A stretch of 64,000 nucleotides of DNA from Minisyncoccota bacterium (GCA_041658985.1 JBAZZC010000003.1:10540-74539); one strand, 5' to 3'. Counted from the first letter of the stretch, positions 3,148 to 57,821 are shown. Made by a program: numbers and translations. The notes: generated from the letters alone by a model not told the origin.

Positions 3148-4824
3148 CTATTCGGTTTCAATGTCAACCACTCTTTGCAATTCTTCCAAAGTAGTTATCC
3201 CTTGCAAAACTTTTAATATACCGTCTTGTCTTAAGTTCAAAATGTTTTGGGGTTTGGCGGCTTTTTCTATTTCTCTTTCACTTGGGTTATCCTTAACTAC
3301 ATTTTCAATATTTTCGTCCATGGTGATGGCCTCGTAGATTCCTATTCTACTTTTGTATCCAAGCATATTACATTTGTCACATCCGACTGCTTGCCAGATA
3401 TGTGTTTGGTCAATTCCATCTAAGTATGTTTTGTCAGTTATCGTATCTAAAATCTTATCTATGGTTACTTTACTCTCTCCATTAAGTGAAATCTGTTTTT
3501 TACATTCTGGGCAAAGTACTCTGACCAACCGCTGGGCTATTGCAAGATTTAAGGCAGAAGAAATAATTTTTGGATTAACTCCGAGGTCAATTAGGCGAGG
3601 GAATGTTCCTGCTGCCGTGTTGGTGTGAAGGGTAGAGAAGACAAGGTGACCCGTCAGGGCCGAGTTGATGGCAATCTCTGCTGTTTCTCCGTCTCTAATC
3701 TCACCAACCATAATAATATCGGGGTCCTGGCGAAGGGCACTTCGCAGACCTTCAGCAAATCCGTAATTCTTTTTTTCGTCTGTTTGGGTTTGAACTATTC
3801 CTGGCAGATGATACTCAATCGGATTTTCTATGGTGATTATTTTTATTTCTGGAGTGTGAACTTTTCTTAGAAATGCGTACAGTGCGGTAGTTTTACCAGA
3901 GCCGGTTGGACCAGTATTCAAAATCATGCCGTTTGGCTTACTCATCTCATGGAGAATAATTTTTAACAGACGTGGATGAATTCCTAAACTCTCAAGCGGG
4001 ACAGAAATAGAATTTGGATTAAGAACTCGAAGCACCACTGATTCGCTGTATGCTCCTGGCAGAAGGGAGGTTCTGATTTCAATTTCACCTTCGTTTATTT
4101 TTATACTAAAACGACCGTCCTGTGCGCCATAAACATTTAATTTTAAGTTAGAAATTAGTTTGATACGGGAGAGGAGTAATTTATATGTTTCTAAATCAAA
4201 ACGTAAAATATCAGTGAGCATACCGTCGAGTCTGTATCTTAACCTGACATAGTCTTCCTCTGCTTCTAGGTGGACATCAGAGGCGTTGGTAGCGATTGCT
4301 CCGGCTAAAATGATTTCCATTATTCTGGAGATACGGTAACTTTTTTTCATTTGCAAAACTTCCTCAATCAGACTTTGAACATCGGGTATAGTGTGAACTT
4401 TGGCTAAAAAGTCTGTGATTTGTTCGTTGGAAATATCCAAAGCCCCTGACTTTGTTTCAAATGAATATGATAAATCTTTATATCTGTCCCAGACTTTATT
4501 CAAACTGGCGTGGGAAACCATAAAAAGTTCTATGGTGTAACCTTTGGCTTTCAAGGCATTTAAGGCTTCTACTGTTTTAGGGTTTTCGGGAGATAGAGCT
4601 CCAATACTTAGAACTTTATCAACTTCATTGAACACGGCGATTTGGGCTTCGCGTGTTTCCACCTCCCCGATAACCCGAAGGGCGTCTATGTTTATTGGGG
4701 TAATAGTTAAATCAAGATAAGAGACCCCGTACTTTGACGACAGTATTTGAGCAAGCTCTTCTTCCTCTTGTCTGCGGAGGTCGTCCACTCGTTTATTTTG
4801 TTTGTCTTCATCAAAGATAACCAT
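3148..4824 (-). CDS. pilB: Type IV pilus assembly / type II secretion ATPase (PilB/GspE family)
   Basis: Walker A motif GPTGSGKTT, a GspE N-terminal domain and a C-terminal CxxC zinc motif; 558 aa. Confidence 0.85.
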   Translation of the reverse strand: MVIFDEDKQNKRVDDLRRQEEEELAQILSSKYGVSYLDLTITPINIDALRVIGEVETREAQIAVFNEVDKVLSIGALSPENPKTVEALNALKAKGYTIELFMVSHASLNKVWDRYKDLSYSFETKSGALDISNEQITDFLAKVHTIPDVQSLIEEVLQMKKSYRISRIMEIILAGAIATNASDVHLEAEEDYVRLRYRLDGMLTDILRFDLETYKLLLSRIKLISNLKLNVYGAQDGRFSIKINEGEIEIRTSLLPGAYSESVVLRVLNPNSISVPLESLGIHPRLLKIILHEMSKPNGMILNTGPTGSGKTTALYAFLRKVHTPEIKIITIENPIEYHLPGIVQTQTDEKKNYGFAEGLRSALRQDPDIIMVGEIRDGETAEIAINSALTGHLVFSTLHTNTAAGTFPRLIDLGVNPKIISSALNLAIAQRLVRVLCPECKKQISLNGESKVTIDKILDTITDKTYLDGIDQTHIWQAVGCDKCNMLGYKSRIGIYEAITMDENIENVVKDNPSEREIEKAAKPQNILNLRQDGILKVLQGITTLEELQRVVDIETE

Positions 4825-4992: not shown

Positions 4993-5010
4993 TTAGCACC
5001 ATTAACTTAT

Positions 5011-5039
5011 TTGACAGAAGTGATAAAAGGGTGTATAAT
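5011..5039 (+). promoter_or_regulatory. Consensus sigma70 promoter (TTGACA-17-TGnTATAAT) for the GC-rich lipoprotein gene
   Basis: TTGACA at 5011-5016, a 17-nt spacer, and an extended -10 (TGTATAAT) at 5032-5039. A GGAGG Shine-Dalgarno lies at 5055-5059. Confidence 0.6.
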
Positions 5040-5069
5040 GTGGGATAGAGGCATGGAGGTGCCTGCGGT

Positions 5070-5729
5070 ATGAAAACATTGAGATTGCTCATGGTGTTAG
5101 CGGTCGTCGTTTCGGTGGCGGCCTGCGCCGGCAAGGTGGCTCCGGCCACCATTCCGCTCAGTGAGCGGATCGCCGAACTCAAGGCCCAGGAGGCCGAGAG
5201 GTTGGCGAACGAGACCCCCGAGGACCGGGCCATCAGGGCTCGCGCCGAGGAAATCGAGCGCGAGATGGCGACGAAGAAGGCCCGCGAGGAGGCCAAGAGG
5301 AGTGGCTCGCCGGCCATGCGCAAGGCCATTAAGGAGTTTGAGAAGGCCAAGAAGGCCATCACGAACTCCGGCCTTCAGGGGTGCGACCCGAGTACGGTCG
5401 ACGTCCACCCGGATGTGGCGCCGCGTCGGAACGCTAGTTCAACCGTGAAGGTTCAGGCGTTCAATCAGGGGCAGGTCCCCGTTGATATCTATGAGCCAAA
5501 ACACGGGCTAGTCGTTCGCAACCTGTGCCCCGGAGGGTCACTGACCCTCTTCCGGGCACGTCGGCTCGGGATTGACCCGGACTACATCCAGTTTCGGTAT
5601 GTCGCCAAGGCGATATTGTCGGACGGGCGGATGCTGACGGCTGAGTCACAGCAATACCAACTATCCAAGTACGACTGGTCGTCCGGTCGAGGGCGACAGG
5701 AGTACGACTGGTACATCGAGGTTCGATGA
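5070..5729 (+). CDS. Hypothetical secreted lipoprotein, GC-rich (about 62% GC), probably horizontally acquired
   Basis: Signal peptide with a lipobox (LAVVVSVAACAG). A strong promoter and Shine-Dalgarno precede it. The high GC makes the overlapping antisense ORFs artefacts. Confidence 0.6.
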   Translation: MKTLRLLMVLAVVVSVAACAGKVAPATIPLSERIAELKAQEAERLANETPEDRAIRARAEEIEREMATKKAREEAKRSGSPAMRKAIKEFEKAKKAITNSGLQGCDPSTVDVHPDVAPRRNASSTVKVQAFNQGQVPVDIYEPKHGLVVRNLCPGGSLTLFRARRLGIDPDYIQFRYVAKAILSDGRMLTAESQQYQLSKYDWSSGRGRQEYDWYIEVR

Positions 5730-5767
5730 GGTAGTCCACGCAACGTGCTGGCACCTCTGCACAACTG

Positions 5768-5810
5768 CCGGGAGGAGGGGTTCACACCCATCCTCCCAGG
5801 CGGTTTTTTC
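5768..5810 (+). terminator. GC-rich hairpin plus T-run terminator after the lipoprotein gene
   Basis: GGGAGGAGGGG ttcaca CCCATCCTCCC followed by GGCGGTTTTTTC. Confidence 0.55.
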
Positions 5811-5925
5811 ATCCAGGCACCAACTAAACGAGTTGAGCTCGTTTTTTCAATTTTTATTTTTGTTATTCGATGAACAGAATTGGCTAGAAGTAATACCGTG
5901 ATCTCGTTTAGTTGGTGCCTGGATG
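5810..5925 (+). repeat. Divergent R135-family element with perfect 25-bp terminal inverted repeats and an internal terminator-like hairpin
   Basis: CATCCAGGCACCAACTAAACGAGAT and its exact reverse complement ATCTCGTTTAGTTGGTGCCTGGATG. The interior has AACGAG-ttgag-CTCGTT followed by TTTTTT. The arm consensus resembles copy A (ATCC..CAC.CAACT). Confidence 0.6.
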
Positions 5926-5932
5926 AATATAA

Positions 5933-6066
5933 ATCCGCACACTAATTTTGCCATCGTTCTATTTTTTAAAACAAAACCAATACCATTTTTATTTTCTTAC
6001 TCAACTTCACACAAGTTAATATATTTGATTTAGAACTAAAAATAATGGCAAATTTAGTGTGCGGAT
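5933..6066 (+). repeat. R135 inverted-repeat element, copy B
   Basis: ATCCGCACACTAATTTTGCCAT ... ATGGCAAATTTAGTGTGCGGAT. It ends 22 nt before the tsaE start codon. Confidence 0.8.
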
Positions 6067-6534: not shown

Positions 6535-6669
6535 ATCCGCACACTAAATTTGGCATTATCTCATAGTTGCTATACATGTGGTTATGTCAAATTTAATAAT
6601 CATGTTTAAATATAAGTATGCATCTAGAATTTGAGATAATAGCAACGATGCCAAAATTAGTGTGCGGAT
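6535..6669 (+). repeat. R135 inverted-repeat element, copy C
   Basis: ATCCGCACACTAAATTTGGCAT ... ATGCCAAAATTAGTGTGCGGAT. It ends 3 nt before the polA ATG. Confidence 0.8.
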
Positions 6670-9884: not shown

Positions 9885-10034
9885 TTACCGGAGAACGTTG
9901 TCGTGTCTCAGTCGTCGGCGGAAATCACCGAGAAGGAGACGAATGACAAGTCCGGCAACAATCACGTAGGCTAACATCGCTGCGCCTACGACGGAGTCTT
10001 TCACTGCCACCACGGAAGACGTTATCTTGTGCAT
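9885..10034 (-). CDS. Small GC-rich hydrophobic peptide (49 aa), hypothetical
   Basis: ATG preceded by an AAGGAGAGG Shine-Dalgarno. Hydrophobic core LAYVIVAGLVIRLLL. GC is about 57% against a ~34% background. Confidence 0.35.
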   Translation of the reverse strand: MHKITSSVVAVKDSVVGAAMLAYVIVAGLVIRLLLGDFRRRLRHDNVLR

Positions 10035-10313
10035 CCGAACCTCTCCTTGGTGAGTTGTGACCTCTTTGATTAATGCTACTCAGAAGTTTAGAAAAAGCAA
10101 ATATAAGAATTAAACAGGGTGTGAATTGGACTTTCTTGAGATTTTTGTTATATTTTGTAGGTTAATAGAGTGTTTACGGTCAGGGATAATTTTCTTGCCG
10201 TCGCAAGAAAATTTCCACGACCCTGCCTCGCCTGTTTTGCATGGTAGCAAAACATGGCTGTGGCTCGCAAAAGCTTTTAATAAGTCAAAGCAGTTTGATT
10301 TATTAAAGCATTT

Positions 10314-10386
10314 GCGCCCGTAGCTCAGTCGGTAGAGCAGCTCCCTTTTAAGGAGATGGTCGCAGGTTCGATTCCTGCCGGGCGCA
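10314..10386 (+). tRNA. tRNA-Lys (anticodon TTT)
   Basis: Acceptor stem GCGCCCG/CGGGCGC, D-arm TAGCTCAGTCGGTAGAGC, anticodon loop CTTTTAA, T-arm GGTTCGATTCC. Confidence 0.85.
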
Positions 10387-10660
10387 CAATTAAAAAATCT
10401 CTGTGGTGGGGATTTTTTAATTGTGCGCCCGGAGCAAGAGTGTGGGGCACTCTTGCGTCAGGAATCGAACAGATTCACGGTTTACGCTCGCAGAAGCGAG
10501 TGTTGTGAATCTGCGTTTTAAATTCTGATGAGTGACGACGAATCAGAATTTAAAAAGATTCCGTCCAGAAAAGGTGTACTGACCATGTAATGGTCGATAT
10601 TCCTGCCGGGCGCACAAACCAAAAAATCTCCACTGCTGGAGATTTTTTGCACTAGTGTGC
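10387..10660. repeat. tRNA-Lys 3'-end duplications and hairpin repeats (scars of site-specific integration)
   Basis: A direct copy of the tRNA 3' end (CGATATTCCTGCCGGGCGCACAA) lies at 10595-10617. An inverted, interrupted copy lies near 10425-10475. Hairpins AAAAAATCTCC..GGAGATTTTTT are shared with repeats at 18566-18703 and 23259-23396. Confidence 0.55.
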
Positions 10661-10775
10661 TGACCGGAATACAATATAATTATAATAACTTTTAGTTGAG
10701 AGTTGAGTTTAGGTTTTATAAAAAGCAGGCACACAGAGATTCCCTGTGTGCCTGTTCAAGTGGTACTCTCCGACC

Positions 10776-12185
10776 TTACCCCAAGCGCTTGAGAAAAGCT
10801 GTTACTTCGGGCGGTAGCGGGAGCGATGGCGAAAAGACCGCTTCGTATTTGTAGTGACGGTAGGCGCCGAACACGCTCTGGAGTTCTTCTGGCGTGTGCG
10901 TCTCGTCTTGAACGACCTTCTTAATCGCCCCCAGAAGATGAGGGAAATCGACAGCAAGAGAGAAAAGCTTGTGAAGCACATCCACTTGCAGTCGATGTGG
11001 CAGACGAATTGGAGACCGGTAGTGATATGTCGAGAAGACACTCTCAACACTGTCAATCAAACCCTCCCGCAAACTCTGCTCCCCGAGCCGAGTCCCTGGA
11101 TAGGGGGTGAAAATTGAAACCCAGGCAAAATCAGGTTTGAGTTGAGTGTTGAACTCAACCGTCTCGTAGTCGTTGTCCAAGGTTGTGCCGGGAAAACCCA
11201 AAATATTCTGGGTAAAAACGGCAATACCCTGGGCGCCAAGCAACTTCCGCGCCAGAATCATCTGGGCTTTGCTAATCCGCCTGCCCAAAAGTTCTGTGCG
11301 CACCTTGTCATTACCAGCTTCTACACCCATGAAAATCTTCGCGCAACCTCCTTGCTTTAAGAGTGTAGCAACTTCTTCGTTTACCAAATCGGCCCGCAGG
11401 GAACAGATAAACGGCATGCCGATCTCAGCACGATACCTCGACACAAAGGTGCGAAGTCGAGGTCGATCAAGTACGAAAATGTCGTCGTGAAAATTGATGG
11501 TTTTCAGATTATGGTGCATCTTCAGTTCCACCAGCTCCGCCATCAAATTTTCCGCCGAGCGAGTTCTGACAAACTTCCCCTTGCTCATATAAAGAGTGCG
11601 CAAGGGTCTATTGGCGCAGTACGAACAGTCGTAGGGGCAACCTCGACTTGAAAAGACGCAATATTCCCCGTCAGCGGGAACGCGCTGAAAGAGATCTCGG
11701 TCTGGGAAAGGCAACGCATCGAGGTTCGCCACTAGTGGGCGCACTTCATTGCGATACACGACACCCTTCTCCTTGATCCAGAAATTGCGTATTTCTCTGA
11801 TCGATGAGTGGGTTTTGATCGCTTGGGCCAGCTCCACAACCGCCTCATCTCCCTCTCCGATTCCAATGACGTCCACCGCCTCATGTGTCAGAATCTCTGG
11901 CACAAGAGTCGGATGAAAACCACCAAAAACAGAGAGAAATGGGTGCCGCCGCTTGAGCCGACTGCACAATTCCAAACAATGCGTCTGTTCGCCCGTGATG
12001 ACGCTAAACATCACCACATCCGGAACGAATTCTTCGAATATTCGTTCGGTATCCTCTTGGCTGGACAGAGAGCCGCGGACGACAAACCCATGTTGCTTGA
12101 GTGCTGACGAGAGATACATCGCCCCAAGCGGTTCATCGACCAAAGCAGGACTAACGATCAAAATCCGCGGGTAATCTTTGTCCAT
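10776..12185 (-). CDS. B12-binding domain radical SAM protein (GC-rich, about 55% GC)
   Basis: CxxxCxxC motif (CPYDCSYCAN), an N-terminal cobalamin-binding-like domain, a GGAGG Shine-Dalgarno, and foreign base composition. Confidence 0.75.
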   Translation of the reverse strand: MDKDYPRILIVSPALVDEPLGAMYLSSALKQHGFVVRGSLSSQEDTERIFEEFVPDVVMFSVITGEQTHCLELCSRLKRRHPFLSVFGGFHPTLVPEILTHEAVDVIGIGEGDEAVVELAQAIKTHSSIREIRNFWIKEKGVVYRNEVRPLVANLDALPFPDRDLFQRVPADGEYCVFSSRGCPYDCSYCANRPLRTLYMSKGKFVRTRSAENLMAELVELKMHHNLKTINFHDDIFVLDRPRLRTFVSRYRAEIGMPFICSLRADLVNEEVATLLKQGGCAKIFMGVEAGNDKVRTELLGRRISKAQMILARKLLGAQGIAVFTQNILGFPGTTLDNDYETVEFNTQLKPDFAWVSIFTPYPGTRLGEQSLREGLIDSVESVFSTYHYRSPIRLPHRLQVDVLHKLFSLAVDFPHLLGAIKKVVQDETHTPEELQSVFGAYRHYKYEAVFSPSLPLPPEVTAFLKRLG

Positions 12186-12196
12186 TTCTCAAACCT

Positions 12197-12270
12197 CCAG
12201 GTTTGATACTACAATGTTGATAGTCTTTTCTAGGAACTTCTAAGTTTGATAATACAATGTTTATAGGTCT
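12197..12270. repeat. Imperfect tandem direct repeat (~31-bp unit GTTTGATAcTACAATGTTgATAGTCT) upstream of the radical SAM gene
   Basis: Two units at 12197-12226 and 12239-12270. Confidence 0.5.
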
Positions 12271-16011: not shown

Positions 16012-16146
16012 CCCGCACACCAATTTTGGCATTGTCTCTATATTGCCACATCAATAATTATATAAAGAACGAGTCATTTTCATCTAAGTAAGGTTGTTTA
16101 ATTATCTTGAGAGACTGGGCAATGATGCCAAATTTGGTGTTCGGGT
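16012..16146 (+). repeat. R135 inverted-repeat element, copy D
   Basis: CCCGCACACCAATTTTGGCAT ... ATGCCAAATTTGGTGTTCGGGT. It ends exactly at the mutM stop codon. Confidence 0.8.
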
Positions 16147-18565: not shown

Positions 18566-18703
18566 GTGGTCAGGAATATTTTGCTCGTCGTCACTCGCAA
18601 AATTTCATGACCCTGACTCAGCTGTTTTTTCTGTTGAAAAAACATGCTTCCGTCCAGCACATAACAATAAAAATCTCCAGCAGTGGAGATTTTTATTGTT
18701 ATG
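18566..18703. repeat. tRNA-flanking hairpin repeat X1
   Basis: About 85% identical to 23259-23396. Contains a 22-bp-stem hairpin GCACATAACAATAAAAATCTCC..GGAGATTTTTATTGTTATGTGC abutting the tRNA 3' end. Confidence 0.7.
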
Positions 18704-18775
18704 TGCTCACGGCAGGAATCGAACCTGCATTTCTCCCTTCGCAGGGGAGTGTCTTATCCATTCAACGACGCGAGC
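18704..18775 (-). tRNA. tRNA-Arg (anticodon GCG as read; the exact anticodon needs checking)
   Basis: Acceptor GCTCGCG/CGTGAGC, anticodon stem CTCCC/GGGAG with loop CTGCGAA, T-arm GCAGGTTCGATTCCTGC. Confidence 0.65.
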
Positions 18776-19462: not shown

Positions 19463-19741
19463 TTATGCTTGGTGTTCTGTCTCTACTGTATATTTTTTTG
19501 CCACAAAATATATGTAGATTATTTCCAAGATACCCAGGGTGTTAACTACAAGCAAAATAATAAACCACCACTTGCTTGATAATCGTGCAGCTTTCCACAA
19601 GGCCCAGCCTTTCCAAGCTAGTGACCAAACGATTAATAATGCTACAACCCAAGGTGCAACTTTTAGAAAAGGCAACATTTCAGGTTGTGTTAGAAAACTT
19701 GTTATTGTTGTTTCCATCCCATTAGAAGTAGGGCTCAGCAA
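19463..19741 (-). CDS. Small hypothetical membrane protein
   Basis: Two transmembrane helices with a Trp-rich segment (WKGWALWKAARLSSKWW). Confidence 0.35.
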   Translation of the reverse strand: MLSPTSNGMETTITSFLTQPEMLPFLKVAPWVVALLIVWSLAWKGWALWKAARLSSKWWFIILLVVNTLGILEIIYIYFVAKKYTVETEHQA

Positions 19742-19893
19742 ACTTTGTTGTTGTGATACCTACTCAAATTAATTTATAAAGATTTATTGCTATCTACAAT
19801 TTCCCGTTAACTTCTAACGGGATAAATAATCATTAATTATATCAAAAATATATTTTCCTAGCTACTAAACGCTAGCTACTATATACTATTCTT

Positions 19894-20277
19894 ATGAAAT
19901 ATCTTGGTATTGATTATGGTTCAAAACGAATTGGCCTGGCGGTTTCTGATGAGGCTGGTAGTTTTGCTTTTCCCTTGAAAGTTTTAAGTAATTCAGAAAA
20001 TCTAATTAAAGAATTGGTTGAAATATGTAGGGAAAACAATGTGGAAGGGGTTGTGGTGGGGGAGTCAAAAGATTATCTTCAAAAAGACAATGAGATTATG
20101 GATGAAATTTTGCCATTTGTTGAGGATTTAAAAAATGTACTTAACCTGCCAATATATATGCACCCAGAATTTTTGACTTCCCAGGAGGCCGAGAGATTGC
20201 AGGGTAAAAACGATATGCATGATGCTAGTGCAGCGGCTCTTATTTTAAAAAGTTATTTGGATTCATCCGCACACTAA
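19894..20277 (+). CDS. ruvX: Putative pre-16S rRNA nuclease / Holliday junction resolvase-like protein YqgF (RuvX)
   Basis: MKYLGIDYGSKRIGLAVSD N-terminus typical of YqgF. Confidence 0.8.
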   Translation: MKYLGIDYGSKRIGLAVSDEAGSFAFPLKVLSNSENLIKELVEICRENNVEGVVVGESKDYLQKDNEIMDEILPFVEDLKNVLNLPIYMHPEFLTSQEAERLQGKNDMHDASAAALILKSYLDSSAH

Positions 20278-20395
20278 GTTTAGCATCGTTGCCATTTTTT
20301 GTGGTTTGGCTAACGTTCAATTTTTTGTAATATCCCGTGTATTATAGTTGTATGTGTTGTGGCAACAAAAATAATGCTAAACTTAGTGTGCGGAT
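20265..20395 (+). repeat. R135 inverted-repeat element, copy E
   Basis: ATCCGCACACTAAGTTTAGCAT ... ATGCTAAACTTAGTGTGCGGAT. The left arm overlaps the ruvX stop codon. Confidence 0.8.
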
Positions 20396-23258: not shown

Positions 23259-23396
23259 GTGGTCAGGAATATTTTTGTTTCCGTCAAAACAAAAATTTCA
23301 CGACCCTGACTCGGCTGTTTTTTCTACTGAAAAAACATGCCTTCGTCTAGCACATAACAACAAAAATCTCCAGCAGTGGAGATTTTTGTTGTTATG
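23259..23396. repeat. tRNA-flanking hairpin repeat X2
   Basis: About 85% identical to 18566-18703. Same hairpin abutting the 3' end of tRNA-Arg(TCT). Confidence 0.7.
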
Positions 23397-23468
23397 TGCT
23401 CTCGGTTGGAATCGAACCAACATCAAAGCCTTAGAAGAGCTCTACTCTATCCATTGAGCTACGAGAGC
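23397..23468 (-). tRNA. tRNA-Arg (anticodon TCT)
   Basis: Acceptor GCTCTCG/CGAGAGC, anticodon loop CTTCTAA, T-arm GTTGGTTCGATTCCAAC. Confidence 0.75.
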
Positions 23469-27976: not shown

Positions 27977-28028
27977 TCAACAAGGTATACTACTCTTGTA
28001 AGGAGACAACGGATAAATAATAAAAATC

Positions 28029-28580
28029 ATGTTATATACGAGGAAAGGAGATCAGGGTGACACATCAACATTTGGTTGTGACCAAAGAATTTCAAAAAGT
28101 TCAGCAATAGCTGAAGCTTTGGGTTCTATGGATGAAATTAATTCTTTTCTCGGTATTTGTAAAATAAAATCAACCGAAAAAAATCTTAAGCTTGGTGATA
28201 AAAATATTAGTGACATTGTGCATGATATTCAACAAACACTTTTCATAATTCAAGCAGAATTGGCTGGTGCCGACAAAAAGGTAGCAGAAGAAAAAGTTTT
28301 AGAAATTGAGGGTTTGATAGGAGAGATAGAAAAATTGCTTCCACCAATAAAATCCTTTTTTATTTCGGGGGGAACAGAACTTGGGGCCACATTTGATGTG
28401 GCTCGGACTATTGCCAGGAGGGCAGAGAGGCGAGTGGTGCAGGTGATAGAAGAGGGAACCCGACCCGTTGGTCCAAATACAAAAAAATACATGAACCGAT
28501 TATCTAGTATTCTCTATGCTCTAGCTAGACTTTCTAACCACTTGGGTGGTATAAATGAGGAGTCTCCAAGTTATAAATAG
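28029..28580 (+). CDS. Cob(I)yrinic acid a,c-diamide adenosyltransferase, PduO type
   Basis: MLYTRKGDQGDTS N-terminus; the ~180 aa helical bundle length fits PduO-type enzymes. Confidence 0.75.
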   Translation: MLYTRKGDQGDTSTFGCDQRISKSSAIAEALGSMDEINSFLGICKIKSTEKNLKLGDKNISDIVHDIQQTLFIIQAELAGADKKVAEEKVLEIEGLIGEIEKLLPPIKSFFISGGTELGATFDVARTIARRAERRVVQVIEEGTRPVGPNTKKYMNRLSSILYALARLSNHLGGINEESPSYK

Positions 28581-28601
28581 TGTTATAATTCAGGAGTTAA
28601 T

Positions 28602-28673
28602 GGTGGCTATGGTGTAGCGGTAACACAGAAGCTTGTGGAGCTTTTATCTCCGGTTCGACCCCGGATAGCCACC
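28602..28673 (+). tRNA. tRNA-His (anticodon GTG) with G-1
   Basis: G + GTGGCTA acceptor pairing with TAGCCAC + C73. Anticodon loop TTGTGGA. Confidence 0.8.
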
Positions 28674-28677
28674 CAAG

Positions 28678-28773
28678 ATGACGGGAACTTATTTTCAAGG
28701 AAATAGTTTACATCCTCAACATATTTCAGTTGGGGCCGTTTTAGTCAATGAAAAGGGTGAGATTTGTGGATAA
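28678..28773 (+). pseudogene. Truncated Nudix hydrolase N-terminal fragment (31 codons)
   Basis: MTGTYFQGNSLHPQHISVGAVLVNEKGEICG* resembles the start of a Nudix fold but stops before the Nudix box. Confidence 0.3.
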
Positions 28774-28781
28774 CTATGGAC

Positions 28782-28811
28782 TTGACTTATAATACCCCCT
28801 GGGGGTATAAT
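28782..28811 (+). promoter_or_regulatory. Promoter TTGACT-18-TATAAT with the CsoR-type operator ATACCCCCTGGGGGTAT in the spacer
   Basis: -35 at 28782-28787. A perfect 17-bp GC-rich palindrome at 28792-28808 overlaps the -10 at 28806-28811. Matches the known CsoR operator pattern (TACCC..GGGTA). Confidence 0.65.
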
Positions 28812-28840
28812 GATCATGTTATCAAATAATTAATAAATAT

Positions 28841-29062
28841 ATGATGTACTATTACAGCAACTTCCTTCCGTTTTCTTTTTTTGGACCAGTACTTATGGTT
28901 CTATTTTGGGTTTTAGTTATTTATTTAATTATTTCTCTCCTTAGGAGAACACCACACCATTACGAAGGTAATAATGCAGTAGAAATATTGAAGGAAAGAT
29001 ATGCCAGGGGTGAAGTCACCAAGGAACAATTTGAAGTAATAAAAAAAGATTTACAAAAGTAA
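28841..29062 (+). CDS. SHOCT domain membrane protein
   Basis: Transmembrane helix plus a C-terminal ILKERYARGEVTKEQFEVIKKDL SHOCT motif. Confidence 0.75.
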   Translation: MMYYYSNFLPFSFFGPVLMVLFWVLVIYLIISLLRRTPHHYEGNNAVEILKERYARGEVTKEQFEVIKKDLQK

Positions 29063-29067
29063 TCATA

Positions 29068-29178
29068 TGAATCCCGTACGAAATTTATGTTATTTGTCTT
29101 ACGGGATAAATATTAGTAAATAATAGTTAATAAAAAATAAAGGTGAATAAATAGCTTTTATTTCGTACGGGATGAATT
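29068..29178. promoter_or_regulatory. Three ATCCCGTACGGGAT-type (CGTACG-core) sites between SHOCT and csoR
   Basis: TGAATCCCGTACGAAAT (29068-29084), TTACGGGAT (29099-29107), and ATTTCGTACGGGATGAATT (29160-29178, overlapping the csoR ATG). The outer sites are mutual inverted repeats. Confidence 0.5.
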
Positions 29179-29435
29179 TACCAAAACAAAAACTTATTCG
29201 TCGACTAAAAATAATTGAAGGACAGGTTCGTGGACTTCAAGAAATGATAGAGAAAGACGTTTATTGTATTGATATCATCACTCAAACATCAGCCGTTAAA
29301 CAGGCACTTTCAGGTATTGAGGATGTTTTAATGGAAAGTCATTTAGAAACTTGTTTAGTACACCAAATTAAAAAAGGCAAAGAAAAACAAGCAACGGGAG
29401 AAATGCTGAAAGTTTATAGGTTAAAAAGAAAATAA
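29172..29435 (+). CDS. csoR: CsoR/RcnR family metal-sensing transcriptional repressor
   Basis: [28 protein letters not shown] with Cys/His ligands at the conserved positions. Confidence 0.85.
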
Positions 29436-29437
29436 CT

Positions 29438-31732
29438 ATGAGTGATACAAAAACTTACCGAATAAAAGGTATGCACTGTGCGTCATGTGCAAATATTATA
29501 GAAAAGACTTTCAGAAAAATTGAAGGTGTTTATCATGCCGAAGTAAATTATGGTACTGAAAAGACAAAAGTTTCTTTTGATGAGACAAAAACTAATCCTC
29601 ATCATCTTTCAAAAAAAATTGAACCACTTGGTTATTCTTTGATTATTCCGACAGCGGAGTCCATGGGGATGTCGGAAAGTGAACATGCGAAGCATCTTGG
29701 ATTAAATCAGTCAAAGCAGGAAAAATTAGCAGAGGTAAAAAGTATGAAAAATAAAGTTTATTCTATTTTACCTTTGGCTGTTATAAGTATTATCATAATG
29801 AGTTGGGATATTTTCTCCCAATTTGGATTAGTTAATGAGCCCTCATTCTTTTGGAGAAATATTTTTCAATATCTTCTTCCTTTGATGGCAGTGATTACAT
29901 TTGCAGTTTTGGGAAAGCCATATTTACTGGGTGTGTATCGTTTTGCGCGTTATGGCAAAGCAAACATGGATACCCTTATAGGTGTAGGAACGTCGGTGGC
30001 TTTTATATATAGTGTGATTGTTACTTTTTTTACAGAAAGTCTAAAATCATTTATAAATGTTTCCAGTGTATATTTCGACGTTACTATTATAGTTATTACT
30101 TTTATAGCTCTAGGAAAATATTTAGAGGCTCGTTCAAAAATAAAAACAGGAGATGCTATAGAAAAGCTTCTGAATCTTCAAGCCAAGACGGCTTTAGTAA
30201 TTCGTGAGGGGGTAGAAATAGAAGTACCAATAGACCAAGTTGTTCACGGTGATTTAATAATAATAAAACCAGCAGGAAAAATTCCTGTTGACGGCGTTCT
30301 TGTTTCAGGAAGTTCTTATGTAGATGAGTCAATGGTTACAGGGGAACCAATGCCTGTTTCTAAAAAAATTGGTGATAGTGTTGTTTCTGGAACAATAAAT
30401 ACAAATGGGACATTTACGCTCAAGGCGACAAAAATTGGTTCGGAAACCATGCTTGCTAGAATCATAAAAATGGTTGAAGAAGCACAAGGAAGTAAGGCTC
30501 CTATTCAAGCTCTTGCTGATAAAATATCAGGGGTTTTTGTGCCCATTGTTCTGGTTATTTCAGTTCTTTCTCTAATTTTGTGGCTTAGTATAGGTTCACA
30601 ATATTTAGGGTTTTCACAAGCACTTTCATTTGGTCTGGTTTCTTTTGTTGGTATTCTTGTTATCGCTTGTCCGTGTGCTCTAGGACTTGCAACACCGACA
30701 GCAATTATTGTTGGAGTAGGAAAGGGGGCGAGTGAAGGAATATTGATTAAAGATGCTGGAACATTAGAAAAATTAGGAAAAGTAAATGTGGTTGTGGTTG
30801 ATAAGACGGGAACATTAACCTATGGAAAACCAGAGCTTACATCAATACAAAATTTGTCTAACAAAACGGACAATGAACTCGTTTCGGTCTTGGCTTCATT
30901 AGAAAAAAGTTCTGAACATCCGATTGCTCATGCAGTTGTTTCATACGCAAATGAAAAGAAAATTGAACTTAAGTCAGTAAGTGCGTTTGACGCCATTAAG
31001 GGTAAGGGGATACAAGGTGAGATTGATGGAGTAAAATATTATGCGGGCAATACAAAACTGATACAAGATTTAGGCTTATCATTTGATACAGAATTATTTG
31101 AGAGAGAAACGATTGAAGGAAAAACTCCTATCATTGTTGCTATAAATGAGAAAGTTTTGGGTGTGGTAATGGTGGCAGATGCAATTAAACCAGAAGCGGT
31201 TGAGGCTGTAAAAAATCTTCACAAACTTGGAATAAAAATAGTAATGCTTACTGGGGATGATAAAAATACCGCGGAATTTATCGCCAAACAGGTTGGTATT
31301 GATGAAGTGGTAGCAGAGGTCATGCCTGAGGACAAATTGAATAAAATTAAGGAACTTCAGTCTCAAGGTAAGATAGTTGCTATGGCCGGAGATGGGGTCA
31401 ATGATGCTCCAGCCTTAGCCCAGGCAGATGTTGGTATAGCAATGGCCACGGGAACTGATGTGGCTATAGAAAGCGCTGGAATTACTCTTCTCCATGGAGA
31501 TATATCAAAACTTGTCAAGGCAATCAATTTATCAAAAATGACAATGCGGGGTATTAAACAAAATTTATTTTGGGCCTTCATATATAATATAGTTGGTATT
31601 CCGCTCGCTGGTGGATTATTTTATCCCATTTTCGGATGGATGTTGTCACCAGTTTTTGCGGGGTTCGCTATGGCTATGTCTTCTGTGTCTGTGGTAGGCA
31701 ACTCACTTCGCTTAAAGACAAAAAAATTATGA
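29438..31732 (+). CDS. copA: Copper-translocating P1B-type ATPase
   Basis: N-terminal HMA motif (MHCASCA), a CPC transmembrane motif, DKTGTLT phosphorylation site, and GDGVNDAP. Confidence 0.9.
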
Positions 31733-32754
31733 AAAACGTAACTTATACATTTCATGTGGAGGGTATGCACTGCAAATCATGCAGTTTAGTAATTGAACAG
31801 GAACTTTCTGACTTATCATATGTAGAATCAGTTCAGGTGAACGGACACAAACACACAGTAACAGTCACGGGTGATTTTGAGGGTGTACCACAAGAAGAAT
31901 TAGCAAAAGACTTTTCTGTTTTACTTGCTTCACAGGGGTACACTTTTTCAGTGGAGAAAAAGGAAATCATTAAAAATTGGAGCGATTTCAAAATTGCTAT
32001 ACCGGTAGCATTGGGGTTTGTTGCGTTGTTTGTACTATTGCAAAAAATAGGGATTGTAAATATTGTAGATGCAACAAAAATGACATACGGTACTTCTTTT
32101 ATGGTTGGTATTATTGCTTCTCTTTCATCTTGTGCCGCAGTTGTTGGAGGTCTCCTTCTTTCTATGTCTGCCACTTTTGCAAAAGAAGGAGATAGGTTTA
32201 AGCCACAGTTTATGTTTCATGGCGGACGCCTTATTTCCTTTTTTGTCTTCGGAGGAATAATTGGCTTAATTGGTTCGGCTTTTACATTGAGTATTAGCGC
32301 ATCATTTACCCTTGGAATAATAATCGGTTTGGTGATGTTGATTCTAGGAATTAATCTTCTTGATGTTTTTCATTTCACAAAAAGATTTCAACCAGCAATG
32401 CCAAAATTTCTCTCTAAACATGCACTTGGTGTTTCAAAATTAAATCACGCAGCTACGCCATTTTTGGTGGGAATAGTTACATTTTTCTTGCCATGTGGTT
32501 TTACCCAATCAATGCAAATATACACTCTCTCCACCGGCAATTTTCTTTCGGGTGGGTTGACTATGCTGGTTTTTGCCTTGGGTACATTACCAGTACTTGC
32601 CTTAATTAGTTTCAGCTCATTCAATATTAAAAATAGTTCAAAATCTAGTGTATTCTTTAAATCTGCTGGACTTATTGTTATAATGTTTGCTTTATTTAAT
32701 ATTATTAATAGTTTAGTGGTTGTCGGAGTTATTCCGCCAGTTTTCAGTTTCTAG
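31729..32754 (+). CDS. Heavy-metal-associated domain fused to a polytopic membrane protein (putative metal permease, CcdA/TauE-like)
   Basis: Start moved to MKNV, overlapping the copA stop as ATGA. HMA motif GMHCKSC; transmembrane Cys motifs SSCAAV and FLPCGF. Confidence 0.55.
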
Positions 32755-32766
32755 TAGAATAAATAT

Positions 32767-33156
32767 ATGAAAGGAATCACTATATCAATAATAATTGCTG
32801 TTGGTCTTATCGGTGCAGTTCTTATTCTTGGAAAAAACAAATCTGGACCAGGAGAGGGTATTCCCGTTAATAATGTAACTATAGTAGATGGAAAACAAAT
32901 TATTGAGATACAAGCCAAAGGAGGATATTCTCCTAGAAAAAGTGTGGCCAAAGCCGGTATACCGACGATTATTCGTTTTAATACAGCAGGAACTTTTGAC
33001 TGTTCTTCTTTTGTCCGTATTCCGAGTATGAATATAAGTCAAAATCTTTCTCAGTCTGGTACTACAGACATAGATCTGGGTAGTCCTACAGTTGCTATCT
33101 TACAAGGAATGTGTGGAATGGGGATGTATCCCTTTGAAATAAATTTTACAAACTAG
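32767..33156 (+). CDS. Membrane-anchored cupredoxin-like copper-binding protein
   Basis: N-terminal transmembrane helix, a beta-rich domain ending in the Cys/Met-rich GMCGMGMYPFE. Sits in the copper operon. Confidence 0.5.
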   Translation: MKGITISIIIAVGLIGAVLILGKNKSGPGEGIPVNNVTIVDGKQIIEIQAKGGYSPRKSVAKAGIPTIIRFNTAGTFDCSSFVRIPSMNISQNLSQSGTTDIDLGSPTVAILQGMCGMGMYPFEINFTN

Positions 33157-33196
33157 TTTTTGGAGTTTGATATTAATACTGTTATAATAAACTCTT

Positions 33197-33721
33197 ATGA
33201 AACAGGAATTTTCTGTGCACCTTGAGACCAAAAAATATCAAACTCGTTATCGTGCGGAGTTTATTACTATTACAAAAGATGTTGAAAAAGCGATAGAAAA
33301 AGCTGGTATAAAAAGAGGAACTGTATTAATTCAAACCCTTCACACAACTTGTGGTATATGGGTGAACGAAAATGAAAAAAATCTTATAGGCCCATCAGAA
33401 GAGCTTGGCTACACGTCTGATTTAAGGAAGGTTTTGGACAATTTTGCTAATCCTGCTTTGGAGTATGGTCATAATGACGTTCGTGATGGAAAAAATGTCA
33501 ACGGGAAACGTAATACGCATTTGTGTGAGCCGGATGAAAATGGAGTAATTCATGAATGTATAAATGGCCATGCCCACGCCCAGGCCTTTTTGGTTCACCC
33601 GTCAATTACGCTTATTGTGGAAGATGGAAAACTTTTGCGAGGTAGTTGGCAAGAGATAATGCTTGTTGAACTAGATCACGACAGAGAAAGAACTGTTTCT
33701 TTTCTTGTGTCTGGTCAATAA
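33197..33721 (+). CDS. YjbQ family secondary thiamine-phosphate synthase (UPF0047)
   Basis: QTLHTTCGIWVNENE ... HECINGHAHAQAF motifs. Confidence 0.7.
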   Translation: MKQEFSVHLETKKYQTRYRAEFITITKDVEKAIEKAGIKRGTVLIQTLHTTCGIWVNENEKNLIGPSEELGYTSDLRKVLDNFANPALEYGHNDVRDGKNVNGKRNTHLCEPDENGVIHECINGHAHAQAFLVHPSITLIVEDGKLLRGSWQEIMLVELDHDRERTVSFLVSGQ

Positions 33722-33726
33722 CTTTT

Positions 33727-34647
33727 ATGATAGATAATATTTTAATCACTGAAAAATCAGTTGACTACGAACTGCTCGATAGTGGCGAGGGGGAAAAATT
33801 AGAGAGATATGGAAAGGTTGTTCTTTCTCGTCCAGACCCACAAGCCATCTGGTCAAAGTCATTACCTGAATCAGAATGGAAAAAAGCTGATGCCGTCTTC
33901 AGTCGTGTCGGTACAACAGGGAAATGGGAAGTAGTAGCTAGTAGTAAGCATCTAGCATCTAAAGGGGGGTTTTGGAACATTCAATTAGATAACTTAACTT
34001 TTCAGTTACAACTTTTACCTTCAAAACATATTGGAGTTTTTTCAGAACAGAGTGAACAGTGGAAATGGCTAGAGGAAAAAATTGTTTCCCGTATTTCGCC
34101 GGAGCGAAGCGAAGGCAACAAAACATATAAGGCGCAAGCTACGACAGTTCTGAATTTATTTGGTTACACGGGTGGTGCCAGTTTGGCTTGCGCCAGGGCT
34201 GGAGCAGAAGTTTGTCATGTAGATAGTTCAGAATTTGCTGTTGATTTGGCTCATACTAATATGAAACTTTCTGGCCTTTCGGATAAAAAAATAAGATTTA
34301 TTGTTGATGATGTCAGAAAATTTGTGGAAAGAGAAATAAAAAGAAAGAAAAAATACGACGTAATTATTTTAGACCCACCTATTTATGGTAAGGGCACGAA
34401 AAAAGAAGTGTGGAAGGTTGAAGATGACTTGTTGCCTTTTTTGCTTCACCTAAAAAATATTATTTCAGATAATCCATTAGCTATCGTTCTAAATGGTTAT
34501 GCTTCAAATTATTCTAGCATCACCTACGTTCAATTACTTGAAACTTTAAAATTAAAAGGCAAAATTACTCACGGTGAATTGGCTATAAAGGAATCATCAG
34601 CTGGTAGGCTCTTGCCTTGCGGCATATTTGCTCGTTGGGAACAGTAA
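33727..34647 (+). CDS. Class I SAM-dependent rRNA methyltransferase (RlmI/YccW-like), carrying a 52-bp in-frame repeat insertion
   Basis: PUA-like N-terminus, SAM-binding motif LNLFGYTGGASLA, and ILDPP. The ISPERSEGNKTYKAQATT segment is encoded by the repeat shared with ruvA. Confidence 0.75.
   Translation: MIDNILITEKSVDYELLDSGEGEKLERYGKVVLSRPDPQAIWSKSLPESEWKKADAVFSRVGTTGKWEVVASSKHLASKGGFWNIQLDNLTFQLQLLPSKHIGVFSEQSEQWKWLEEKIVSRISPERSEGNKTYKAQATTVLNLFGYTGGASLACARAGAEVCHVDSSEFAVDLAHTNMKLSGLSDKKIRFIVDDVRKFVEREIKRKKKYDVIILDPPIYGKGTKKEVWKVEDDLLPFLLHLKNIISDNPLAIVLNGYASNYSSITYVQLLETLKLKGKITHGELAIKESSAGRLLPCGIFARWEQ
34096..34147 (+). repeat. 52-bp GC-rich in-frame repeat (copy in the rlmI-like gene)
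   Basis: TCGCCGGAGCGAAGCGAAGGCAACAAAACATATAAGGCGCAAGCTACGACAG; 50 of 52 bp identical to the reverse complement of 17522-17573. Confidence 0.8.
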
Positions 34648-36067: not shown

Positions 36068-36203
36068 CATCCGCACACTAACATTAGTATTGTGTCTTAC
36101 GTTGCTCTACTGGGTATTAAACAGAGTAATGAAGGATAAAATGATGAAGTAAACAAATCAAGATTAGACACAATTGCAACGATACCAATGTTAGTGTGCG
36201 GAT
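36068..36203 (+). repeat. R135 inverted-repeat element, copy F
   Basis: ATCCGCACACTAACATTAGTAT ... ATACCAATGTTAGTGTGCGGAT. The interior is related to copy A. It ends 8 nt before the next ATG. Confidence 0.8.
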
Positions 36204-52661: not shown

Positions 52662-52793
52662 ATCCGAACACTAACTTTGGCATCGTTGCACATCTCCACA
52701 CGTAGATGTAAACGATAGTCTAGATGTAGATTCATATTTTGTATTAATACTCACTTAGCAACAAGGAGATAATGCCAAAGTTAGTGTGCGGAT
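52662..52793 (+). repeat. R135 inverted-repeat element, copy G
   Basis: ATCCGAACACTAACTTTGGCAT ... ATGCCAAAGTTAGTGTGCGGAT. It begins 1 nt after the glyQS stop codon. Confidence 0.8.
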
Positions 52794-52963
52794 AAGTTTT
52801 TACAAAACAAGATTTAGGTGGTACTATTGGCCTATGGATCCCGTTAGAAATCCCTTGGTTGATTTGTAAAAAATGGATTTTAACGAGAAACCTAATTATT
52901 AAGATATATTAACTAATTAAATGCGGAAAGGCTTTAGTAAAAGGCTTTCCTATTTCTAACGGG

Positions 52964-54034
52964 ATGGATAAAGAGCAAGTCATTAGTATTAGTCTTGGTA
53001 CAATTATTAAGACAGTATTTGTTATTTTGTTTTTTGCACTCCTTTTTTACTTGAAGGATTTAGTTCTTGTGTTACTTTTGTCTATAGTCATTGCTTCTGC
53101 TGTAGAACCAGGGACACAATGGCTTGTTCGGCGCAGAATACCCCGTCTTTTTTCTGTGATTTTCATATATGTAGCCATTGCTATATGTTTTGCTGGTGTT
53201 ATCTTTTTTCTTTTAATACCACTACTTTCTGAATCAAGTGATCTTTTAAGAAATTTTCCAACCTATTTTAAGGCCGGAAGTATTTCTAATTCATTAAATA
53301 ATAACAACTTTTTTTCCTCACAATCAATAAACAGTTTTACGAACAGTCTAAATTTAGAACAAATTACTGAACAGATTAATAATATTATAAATGGTATATA
53401 TTCAAATACGTTCAATACCGTTGCTGTCTTTTTTGGAGGAGTCTTATCTTTTCTTTTAACGGTAATTTTGTCTTTTTATCTAGCCATGGAGGAAGACGGT
53501 GTTGGTAAATTTTTGAAAGCCATCTCTCCCATTAAACACGAAAAATACATAACTTCTCTTTGGAAAAGGTCTCAAAGAAAAATAGGTCTTTGGATGCAAG
53601 GACAGCTTATTTTGGCAATTATTATTGGAACACTTGTTTATCTAGGCCTACTAATCATTAATGTTCCCAATGCCTTACTTCTGGCCACCCTGGCCGCTGT
53701 TTTTGAGATTATTCCACTTTTTGGACCAATTCTTGCCTCAATACCGGCCATTGCAATTGCTTTTATGACTGGAGGAGTTTCTTTGGCTGCCCTTGTTGCT
53801 GGCTTGTATATTATTATTCACCAATTTGAGAATCAACTTATTTATCCACTGGTTGTCAAAAAAGTTGTTGGTGTTTCACCGATAGTTTCCATAATGGCGC
53901 TGGCTATTGGATGGCAATTAGCCGGATTTGTCGGTGTTATTCTGTCGGTTCCATTAGCTTCGGCCATTATTGAATTTTTTGATGATATTGAAAAGGATAA
54001 AATTGAGAAATTCGAAAAGATGAATGCTCAGTAA
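52964..54034 (+). CDS. AI-2E family transporter (PerM/UPF0118)
   Basis: Eight transmembrane helices with the FEIIPLFGPILASIPAI motif. Confidence 0.75.
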   Translation: MDKEQVISISLGTIIKTVFVILFFALLFYLKDLVLVLLLSIVIASAVEPGTQWLVRRRIPRLFSVIFIYVAIAICFAGVIFFLLIPLLSESSDLLRNFPTYFKAGSISNSLNNNNFFSSQSINSFTNSLNLEQITEQINNIINGIYSNTFNTVAVFFGGVLSFLLTVILSFYLAMEEDGVGKFLKAISPIKHEKYITSLWKRSQRKIGLWMQGQLILAIIIGTLVYLGLLIINVPNALLLATLAAVFEIIPLFGPILASIPAIAIAFMTGGVSLAALVAGLYIIIHQFENQLIYPLVVKKVVGVSPIVSIMALAIGWQLAGFVGVILSVPLASAIIEFFDDIEKDKIEKFEKMNAQ

Positions 54035-57585: not shown

Positions 57586-57740
57586 CTCTGGTCTTTTTGT
57601 CCGATTTCAGCGTTGGAATTTCAAAAATTCTCGTCACCGTACGTTTAGTACGGCTCCTCGCATTTTTTCATTCCGCCTTGAACTCGAACAAAAATCCTCA
57701 GAGTTTCATTTCTCGACCTATCAAAACTTGCGTGGTCGTA

Positions 57741-57795
57741 TCTTTTTTGGAAACACAAACCCAGACGCTGGTCTGGGTTTGTGTTTCCAAAAAAG
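57741..57795. terminator. Bidirectional rho-independent terminator between convergent rpsR and efp
   Basis: 18-bp stem GGAAACACAAACCCAGAC gctg GTCTGGGTTTGTGTTTCC, flanked by TTTTTT on one side and AAAAAA on the other. Confidence 0.8.
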
Positions 57796-57821
57796 ATACG
57801 ACGAGCTAAAGTTTTGAAAAA

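Follow-up and report, generated by a model that had tools for sequence, protein, structure and literature searches.

The locus considered here, positions 28678-33156 of a 64,000-nt stretch of DNA from a Minisyncoccota bacterium (GCA_041658985.1 JBAZZC010000003.1:10540-74539; the whole stretch is called the window below), is an ordinary CsoR-controlled copper-export operon of the known CsoR-CopA kind in a Paceibacterota (Patescibacteria) bacterium, and its repressor gene, csoR, is preceded directly by a 99-bp palindromic insert that is probably a small, mobile hairpin element. [quoted passage not shown] The repeat family to which the insert belongs, termed family B, displays terminal inverted repeats, flanking duplication, multiple copies, empty sites and adjacency to start codons. 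The locus was compared with 80 genome loci and 80 metagenome loci encoding CsoR relatives (designated by L numbers), and repeat families were sought in about 1.1 Mb of DNA by an unbiased scan for any 6-mer direct repeat enclosing an inverted repeat and then by scans with the arm motifs only. An identical CsoR protein has been annotated from a Candidatus Paceibacterota metagenome-assembled genome, and relatives with 80-90% identity come from Zambryskibacteria, Nomurabacteria, Kaiserbacteria and other Patescibacteria. Because the locus is found in identical form in three independent assemblies (L081-L083), the features of the operon and the element are not an assembly artefact.

A palindromic insert at the csoR start codon

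The insert begins with the left arm CCCGTACGAAAT (29073-29084) and ends with the right arm ATTTCGTACGGG (29160-29171). These 12-nt perfect terminal inverted repeats belong to a longer inverted repeat that extends to 25 nt with 84% complementarity, and a degenerate internal copy of the right arm is located at about 29090-29105. The hexamer ATGAAT stands on both sides; its right copy (29172-29177) constitutes codons 1 and 2 of csoR, and its left copy, a putative target-site duplication, opens an upstream open reading frame (uORF) of 18 codons. The 25-nt inverted repeat is beyond chance, as the RNA fold has a z-score of -5.2 to -5.8 and none of 200 shuffled sequences folds as well. When the element and one hexamer are removed from the window, the SHOCT stop codon, 4 nt and ATG remain, precisely the arrangement of the empty site in L092 (3 nt in L010). 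Among about 150 csoR loci scanned, only four independent lineages carry an insert at this point, with three unrelated arm sequences. L071 has the same arms as the window, another interior and ATGCAT on both sides, and L039, in which the -10 element is followed by 6 nt and ATG, is the corresponding empty site; L084 has unrelated 18-nt arms with mismatched flanks (ATGGAT on the left and ATGAAT on the right); and in L130 the insert is of a third kind and is present twice in tandem, with ATGAAT bounding each copy. A comparison with Rfam gave nothing above noise for the spacer between SHOCT and csoR, and only tRNAs in the whole window.

Family B copies and their insertion sites

Twelve distinct copies of family B, whose consensus arms are CCCGTTAGAA...TTCTAACGGG, were found in the DNA examined, three of them in the window. 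All but one of the twelve directly abut the ATG or GTG of a real gene, and seven of the downstream open reading frames (ORFs) have a Pfam match. The genes concerned are csoR (twice) and those for an AI-2E transporter, a DUF5652 protein, an HMA-DsbD_2 protein, a cupredoxin, YjbQ, a TMEM175-like channel, a DUF5673 protein and CopA, together with a 131-amino-acid ORF without a Pfam match. Across copies, the left and right hexamers vary in concert at their fourth base, which is A/A, C/C (L071) or G/G (window copy at 52840 and L019), as would be expected of a target duplication but not of a sequence fixed in the element. In L064, the duplication splits an ATGA stop/start overlap in such a manner that the left copy keeps the copA stop codon and the right copy provides the next gene with a GTG start. 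Leaderless starts, in which the -10 element is followed by 6-8 nt and ATG, served as insertion sites in L019, L067, L071, L084 and at 52840 in the window. The copy at csoR is homologous over its full length to the copy at yjbQ in L067, and the yjbQ gene of the window, which has no element, is an empty site; therefore the same element occurs at non-homologous sites.

Compared with the GTTAG/CTAAC consensus, the arms with the CGTACG core have two neighboring base pairs altered, with changes in both arms. Hairpin folds across the family have z-scores from -3.3 to -6.8, with -5.8 for the element at csoR, and the internal copy of the right arm, where present, always lies on the 5′ side relative to the gene (csoR and DUF5652 in the window, L019, L067 and L106). 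The following features of MITEs are found in family B: a short sequence with terminal repeats and no transposase ORF, duplication, several copies, homologues at non-homologous sites and empty sites.

Several observations weigh against a mobile element of this kind. First, outside the 64-kb window all comparison loci were chosen for carrying csoR, so that the copy statistics are biased to the operon. Second, one copy (L065:1180) is off a start codon, and three others (L010, L106 and L137) have the left flank ACTTGT and no duplication. Third, the interiors of most copies are unalignable, which is unusual for recently copied MITEs and fits also with arms kept by selection. Fourth, a search of the approximately 1.1 Mb for family-like arm pairs 300-3500 bp apart revealed neither an autonomous element nor a transposase with matching ends, and no transposase was found among the scanned ORFs of the window. 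The sole find of the arm-pair search, a 2.2-kb insert in L027, is unrelated.

A proposed mechanism of insertion and its effect on csoR

We propose that a 99-bp non-autonomous element of the MITE type was inserted at the csoR start and duplicated ATGAAT. In an equivalent reading, the duplication would be the 4-bp TGAA (TGNA) and the element would end in T...A, which would also account for the GTG start and for pairs such as ATGAAT/ATGAAA. From the downstream repeat csoR still has an intact start codon, and the upstream copy now opens the uORF. The insertion would be the work of a transposase provided in trans, with a target that resembles ATGNAT, and only those insertions that regenerate a start codon, or a stop/start overlap, would survive in very compact genomes where leaderless mRNAs are common. 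In RNA, the two arms are predicted on thermodynamic grounds to pair and bury the csoR AUG: the calculated cost of opening the AUG region (-3 to +6) is 11.7 kcal/mol with the element vs 1.7 kcal/mol at the reconstructed empty site, and it drops to 3.8 kcal/mol if the left arm is held single-stranded, as it would be by a ribosome on the uORF. Translation of csoR would then need ribosomes arriving from SHOCT or from the uORF (29067-29123) to melt the stem. As modeled in this way, csoR translation may be coupled to upstream translation, the uORF starting 4 nt after the SHOCT stop codon.

Alternative explanations for the insert

Because no cognate insertion sequence was found and most interiors are unalignable, a selected function of the hairpin remains a live rival, if an unlikely one. 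According to this explanation, selection maintains the element chiefly as a cis-regulatory RNA module and it is not so much selfish DNA: it would be either a portable hairpin at the 5′ end, with a short uORF, that gates the AUG by translational coupling or attenuation, or a leader that is cut, for example by RNase III, to give a leaderless mRNA. Family B as a whole would then be a mobile, start-codon-specific RNA control cassette with the uORF peptide M-N/D/H-P-V-R..., which goes into ATGNAT, restores the start and places genes that had been leaderless or coupled by overlap under the control of a hairpin, a proposal to which we likewise give a low probability. If it were true, the host would keep the element for tuning translation, and here the element would set the ratio of the CsoR repressor to the copper pump. 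The position of the element directly on the AUG, the strong hairpins, the predicted occlusion of the AUG that is lifted when the left arm is open, the compensatory changes in both arms, the conservation of the arms while interiors drift, and the alternative pairing offered by the internal right-arm copy, always on the 5′ side, would all suit such a module, and there is a precedent in the Correia elements, which are cut by RNase III in mRNAs (PMC10969869). However, the element is sporadic at orthologous genes, with presence and absence in close relatives, and the genes that follow it are unrelated in function. Duplicated flanks and a tandem copy, as in L130, are marks of an insertion and not of a regulon, and similarity among the uORF peptides is limited to copies with identical DNA arms. 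A reading of the left arm as coding sequence, in which CCC GTA CGA AAT and CCC GTT AGA AAT both specify PVRN, was too weak to count, since the changes also keep pairing.

The first-pass annotation of this DNA had described three CGTACG-core sites of the type ATCCCGTACGGGAT between SHOCT and csoR as extra palindromes. Two of these are exact: ATCCCGTACGAAAT (29071-29084) and ATTTCGTACGGGAT (29160-29173) are exact reverse complements of each other, and the latter overlaps the csoR ATG. The third, at about 29094-29107, has four mismatches to the idealized 14-mer and is only the degenerate right-arm copy. That the sites are DNA operators, either secondary ones for CsoR or those of a second regulator, which exert extra control over csoR and copA, is highly improbable. 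They are partly palindromic with GTA/TAC dyads, one overlaps the csoR start, and dyads of this kind anchor CsoR to the DNA in S. lividans (PMC3902906). However, they lack the G-tract TAC-X9-GTA architecture, and about 146 of 150 related csoR loci lack them while retaining the true operator. Counted as matches to the idealized palindrome, the two sites do not exceed chance, as 24 of 100 shuffled sequences contain two or more, and the sites are flanked by duplicated hexamers, with empty sites in relatives. The same arms recur at unrelated genes in the window and in other genomes, namely those for the AI-2E transporter, DUF5652, YjbQ and TMEM175. The CGTACG sites are not operators but the inverted-repeat ends of the insert.

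The AT-rich spacer with its many weak inverted repeats might suggest that the 25-nt repeat arose by chance in AT-rich intergenic DNA, or that it simply serves as an intrinsic terminator after SHOCT and before csoR, but this idea can be dismissed given the shuffling result, the identical arms in the unrelated genome L071 and the homologous copies elsewhere (recurrence in independent genomes refutes it), and the lack of a U-tract after a stem that ends on the AUG. Integron attC sites, elements of the IS200/IS605 type and small ribozymes were rejected by inspection: core motifs are absent, a target duplication is present and the interiors are unconserved.

The copper operon and its CsoR operator

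The genes for the SHOCT protein, CsoR, CopA, the HMA-DsbD_2 protein and the cupredoxin-like protein follow one another behind one promoter (Table 1), and Pfam supports the gene series proposed in the first-pass annotation. CsoR matches PF02583 with 91.2 bits (cut-off 22.8), and its best PDB matches are the CsoR entries 4m1p, 4adz and 2hh7. The Cu(I) ligands and the roles of other residues are well established for M. tuberculosis CsoR. In an alignment with these three entries, C32, H57 and C61 correspond to C36, H61 and C65 of that protein, and Y31 and E77 to Y35 and E81; judged from this alignment, the window CsoR carries the Cys-His-Cys Cu(I) ligand triad (the x-C-H-C fingerprint), and its RLXR motif reads RLKI. 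The product of 29438-31732 has the domains and motifs of a P1B-1 Cu(I)-ATPase (CopA), namely E1-E2 ATPase, HAD and N-terminal HMA (GMHCASC) domains and the CPC, DKTGT, YN and MxxSS motifs, the last of which reads MAMSSVS. The start of the HMA-DsbD_2 gene overlaps the copA stop codon (ATGA). The cupredoxin-like protein scores 22.7 bits, under the Pfam cut-off of 27, and its assignment comes through the L064 orthologue, which passes with 33.5 bits. The cassette csoR-copA-HMA-DsbD_2-cupredoxin was found in at least 43 related loci, with the cupredoxin-like gene as its fourth member, and many other loci end at a contig edge.

A SHOCT gene before csoR is a minority variant, found in about nine related loci, and homologues occur in L017, L018, L041, L105 and L108. 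In L017, L018, L041 and L108, the homologue has a Cys/His-rich insert (for example HGKCAGGHCGRH or HGKCVGGNCSHGH) between the membrane helix and the SHOCT domain, the composition of which suggests metal binding; the window protein has only HH at this place. The SHOCT-csoR spacers of L017 and L018 also contain a hairpin, with paired changes between them (GGATTCCAAC...GTTGGAAT vs GGATTCCCGC...GCGGGAAT).

TTGACT (28782-28787) and TATAAT (28806-28811), separated by 18 nt, form the top promoter-like site within 28000-34000, and the operator palindrome ATACCCCCTGGGGGTAT lies in the spacer, as the first-pass annotation had it, and overlaps the -10 element. The palindrome is unique in the window, where the chance expectation is about 0.12 matches at three or fewer mismatches, and no second operator-like palindrome was found elsewhere in the window; nor does the plus strand have an internal promoter-like site within 29063-29171. 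A G-tract pseudopalindrome of the form TAC-X9-GTA is common to the CsoR operators of S. lividans, S. aureus, Listeria and B. subtilis (PMC3902906), and comparison of ATACCCCCTGGGGGTAT with this published motif showed a fit. TAC-X9/10-GTA is located upstream of csoR in 112 of 115 distinct related loci, usually in the layout TTGACA, operator, TATACT. This conservation, together with the Pfam assignments and the ligand triad, bears out the earlier description of a copper operon with a textbook CsoR operator inside its promoter. In 78 of these loci the operator ends 10-14 nt before the csoR ATG, which places the -10 element 6-8 nt from the start and implies a leaderless csoR mRNA there. Counted over the related loci L001-L163, about 70% have the csoR ATG 6-8 nt past a -10 element that overlaps the operator. 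Other genes of the window, for example yjbQ at 33197 and the AI-2E gene, also have a -10-like hexamer 6-9 nt before the ATG and no Shine-Dalgarno sequence.

We infer the regulation of this operon, whose gene content, operator and ligands are shown above, from that of the CsoR family. Without copper, CsoR tetramers would occupy the G-tract pseudopalindrome in the promoter spacer and over the -10 element and block RNA polymerase; binding of Cu(I) at C32, H57 and C61 would free CsoR from the DNA, and the transcript SHOCT-csoR-copA-(HMA-DsbD_2)-cupredoxin would be made. The csoR-copZA and csoR-copA operons of B. subtilis, S. lividans, M. tuberculosis, Listeria and S. aureus are alike in the four-helix-bundle CsoR with a C-H-C Cu(I) site, in the TAC-X9-GTA operator over the promoter, and in an autoregulated csoR followed by a P1B-type Cu(I) ATPase. 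Unlike these operons, the operon in the window has no separate CopZ chaperone but has the HMA-fused DsbD_2 protein and the cupredoxin-like protein. It also differs in that a SHOCT membrane protein comes first, and csoR mRNA is apparently leaderless in most of the patescibacterial relatives.

Table 1. Features of the window discussed in the text (positions counted from its first nucleotide).
Feature	Position	Strand	Description	Basis
Family A copies	2701-2832, 5935-6064, 6537-6667, 16012-16145, 20267-20393, 36071-36201, 52664-52791 (also 5813-5922)		palindromic repeats
Third family B element	19718-19821	-	abuts ATG at 19717 of DUF5652 gene	fold z = -3.3
tRNA-His(GTG)	28603-28674	+	directly upstream of the operon	ARAGORN, Rfam, synteny
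31-codon ORF, called Nudix-like	28678-28773	+	in the spacer between tRNA and promoter	no match in Pfam, NCBIfam, PDB or protein database
Sigma-70-type promoter	28782-28811	+	TTGACT-18-TATAAT	11/12 positions; same design in relatives
CsoR operator	28792-28808	+	ATACCCCCTGGGGGTAT; overlaps spacer and -10 element	TAC-X9-GTA
SHOCT gene	28841-29062	+	small membrane protein, C-terminal SHOCT domain, start MMYYY; first gene of transcript	Pfam
Left direct repeat ATGAAT	29067-29072	+	putative target-site duplication; also opens uORF
18-codon uORF	29067-29123	+	MNPVRNLCYLSYGINISK	starts at left ATGAAT, 4 nt past SHOCT stop
Palindromic MITE-like insert, family B, CGTACG variant	29073-29171	+	99 bp	inverted repeats, fold, homology to L067 copy
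csoR	29172-29435	+	87 amino acids	Pfam PF02583 Trns_repr_metal
copA	29438-31732	+	P1B-type Cu(I) ATPase	Pfam; motifs read from translation
HMA-DsbD_2 gene	31729-32754	+	HMA-fused DsbD_2-family membrane protein	Pfam, NCBIfam
Cupredoxin-like gene	32767-33156	+	membrane-anchored protein, 129 amino acids	Pfam Cupredoxin_1, sub-threshold
Second family B element	52840-52963	+	CCCGTTAGAAAT...ATTTCTAACGGG; ATGGAT on both sides; abuts AI-2E transporter start	fold z = -4.8
AI-2E transporter gene	52964-54034	+	downstream of the second family B element

The region upstream of the operon

The 31-codon ORF between tRNA-His and the promoter had been taken as the N-terminal fragment of a Nudix gene, and the operon as having landed in or next to a decayed gene; neither view could be sustained. 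The ORF has no match in Pfam, NCBIfam or PDB (phmmer), even at E <= 10, no homologue in a search of 5.8 billion proteins with a 43-amino-acid query, and no BLASTP similarity to the three Nudix ORFs found in the examined loci by a regular expression for the Nudix box. It stops after 31 codons, before any box of the form GX5EX7REUXEEXGU. The rest of a Nudix gene was likewise sought at the same place in the syntenic loci: in L106 and in L043/L157 no Nudix gene follows tRNA-His, and the csoR promoter comes directly after a spacer of unrelated sequence. The spacer, which in the window contains a terminator-like hairpin (28714-28735), is not conserved among syntenic loci, and the ORF is not conserved in L106 and L043. 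From these comparisons, the ORF is most likely a chance ORF in the spacer between the tRNA and the promoter.

The gene order tRNA-Val, tRNA-Leu, PduO, tRNA-His, csoR is the same in L106 and the window, tRNA-His is found directly before csoR also in L043 and L157, and the downstream block yjbQ-methyltransferase-PAP2 is common to the window and L067. Because the position of csoR after tRNA-His is itself conserved, there was no recent landing of the operon; the GC content is also flat across it, without a compositional break. Integration at tRNA-His was rejected, since the 3′ end of this tRNA is not repeated anywhere in the window, which leaves no att-like boundary, and there is no GC shift. In L106 (2710-2915), the stretch between tRNA-His and the csoR promoter has two further copies of the tRNA's 3′ end (CAACTCCCGATAGCCACCC), one as a direct repeat about 180 nt downstream and one inverted, an arrangement that looks like an att-type scar of a past integration at tRNA-His.

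Other repeats and regions

A more abundant palindromic family, family A, has arms of the form (A)TTCAT-CCGCACACTAAnTTTGGCAT ... ATGCCAAAnTTAGTGTGCGG-ATAAAA and is present in at least seven copies of about 130 bp each in the 64 kb, all intergenic. Its arms are well conserved, and its interiors are unalignable between copies of the same genome. All copies share their flanking sequences, which are therefore not target duplications. Only 5 nt separate the end of the copy at 6537-6667 from the polA ATG, and the copy at 20267 supplies the ruvX stop codon. In L130 (2741-3006), the two tandem 124-bp elements resemble family A; they are located between the csoR promoter and csoR, and the same arms appear again at 2255-2554 and 3400-3464. 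The csoR-copA spacers of L106 (3264-3535) and L010 (314-530) contain a family B element that lacks a duplication and has ATACTTGT as its left flank. The first codons of copA in L106 are also interrupted by an A-type element, which provides a new in-frame ATG and thereby a replacement for the N-terminus; in L010, a small GC-rich hairpin is enclosed by a duplication (MSNTKIYKIRGIH / MINKIYKIRGMHC) of some 39 nt from the 5′ end of copA. The 2.2-kb segment of L027 (1695-3866) is framed by inverted repeats about 100 bp long, in which at least 16 nt match perfectly (CCCGTTCGGATACCCA...), and has two ORFs of 366 and 234 amino acids, the first of which ends in a restriction-endonuclease-like motif as judged by eye; it may be cargo captured between two palindromic elements.

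Elsewhere in the window, near-identical hairpins with a perfect 24-nt stem (AGCACATAACAA[T/C]AAAAATCTCCA / TGGAGATTTTT...) are located at 18656-18707 and 23349-23400, immediately 3′ of the two minus-strand tRNA-Arg genes, for which they are probably a shared terminator, and there is a perfect 32-nt palindrome at 57735-57802. Two islands, 5001-6000 (0.55) and 10001-12200 (0.45-0.51), are GC-rich relative to the genome (about 0.35). The first has a 219-amino-acid ORF (5070-5729) without a Pfam match, and no Rfam family was found there; the second holds a gene for a B12-binding radical SAM protein (10776-12185, minus strand).

Relation to known palindromic elements and significance

Correia elements (CREE/NEMIS) of Neisseria are MITEs, palindromic and about 100-150 bp long, that end in inverted repeats and duplicate a short target; they often lie just upstream of genes or downstream of promoters, as in the mtrCDE efflux operon, and their co-transcribed hairpins are cleaved by RNase III (PMC10969869). 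Family B is like them in being palindromic, in its terminal repeats and duplication, and in a predicted hairpin downstream of an efflux-operon promoter. However, Correia elements duplicate TA and are not tied to start codons, whereas family B duplicates ATGNAT (or TGNA) and regenerates the start; the arms are unrelated in sequence, and the RNase III cleavage is known for the Correia elements. Rickettsia palindromic elements (RPE) are palindromic repeats of a reduced, compact genome, in which they have spread by settling at positions that leave the host gene working (PMC10969869). Family B shares with RPE the gene-compatible positions in a compact genome, but RPE insert in-frame within coding regions and add a peptide, whereas family B precedes the first codon and does not alter the protein; more similar to RPE in this respect are the A-type inserts found within copA in L010 and L106. 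The bcr1-type MITEs of the Bacillus cereus group are about 150 bp long, have a specific AT-rich target, TTTAT, which is duplicated, and are transcribed with neighboring genes. They have in common with family B a short, specific duplicated target, but the target and the arms differ, and to our knowledge no association with start codons has been reported for them. A literature search yielded no top-ranked paper joining MITEs or palindromic repeats with Patescibacteria, an absence that is not proof of novelty. As a start-codon-associated family of palindromic elements, family B is modestly novel.

The operon itself adds little beyond the observation that nearly all copper cassettes of Patescibacteria share a single CsoR operator-and-promoter design, in which csoR is usually leaderless. 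The insert is also a warning that inverted repeats near a regulator gene are not to be read as operators. Its probable meaning, in the explanation favored here, is that a family of palindromic elements persists in ultra-small genomes through insertion at start codons, which are restored in the process. Confirmation on a genome-wide scale would make this a clear case of mobile DNA surviving where there is almost no non-coding space, and a natural experiment in which leaderless genes are turned into leadered, hairpin-gated ones.

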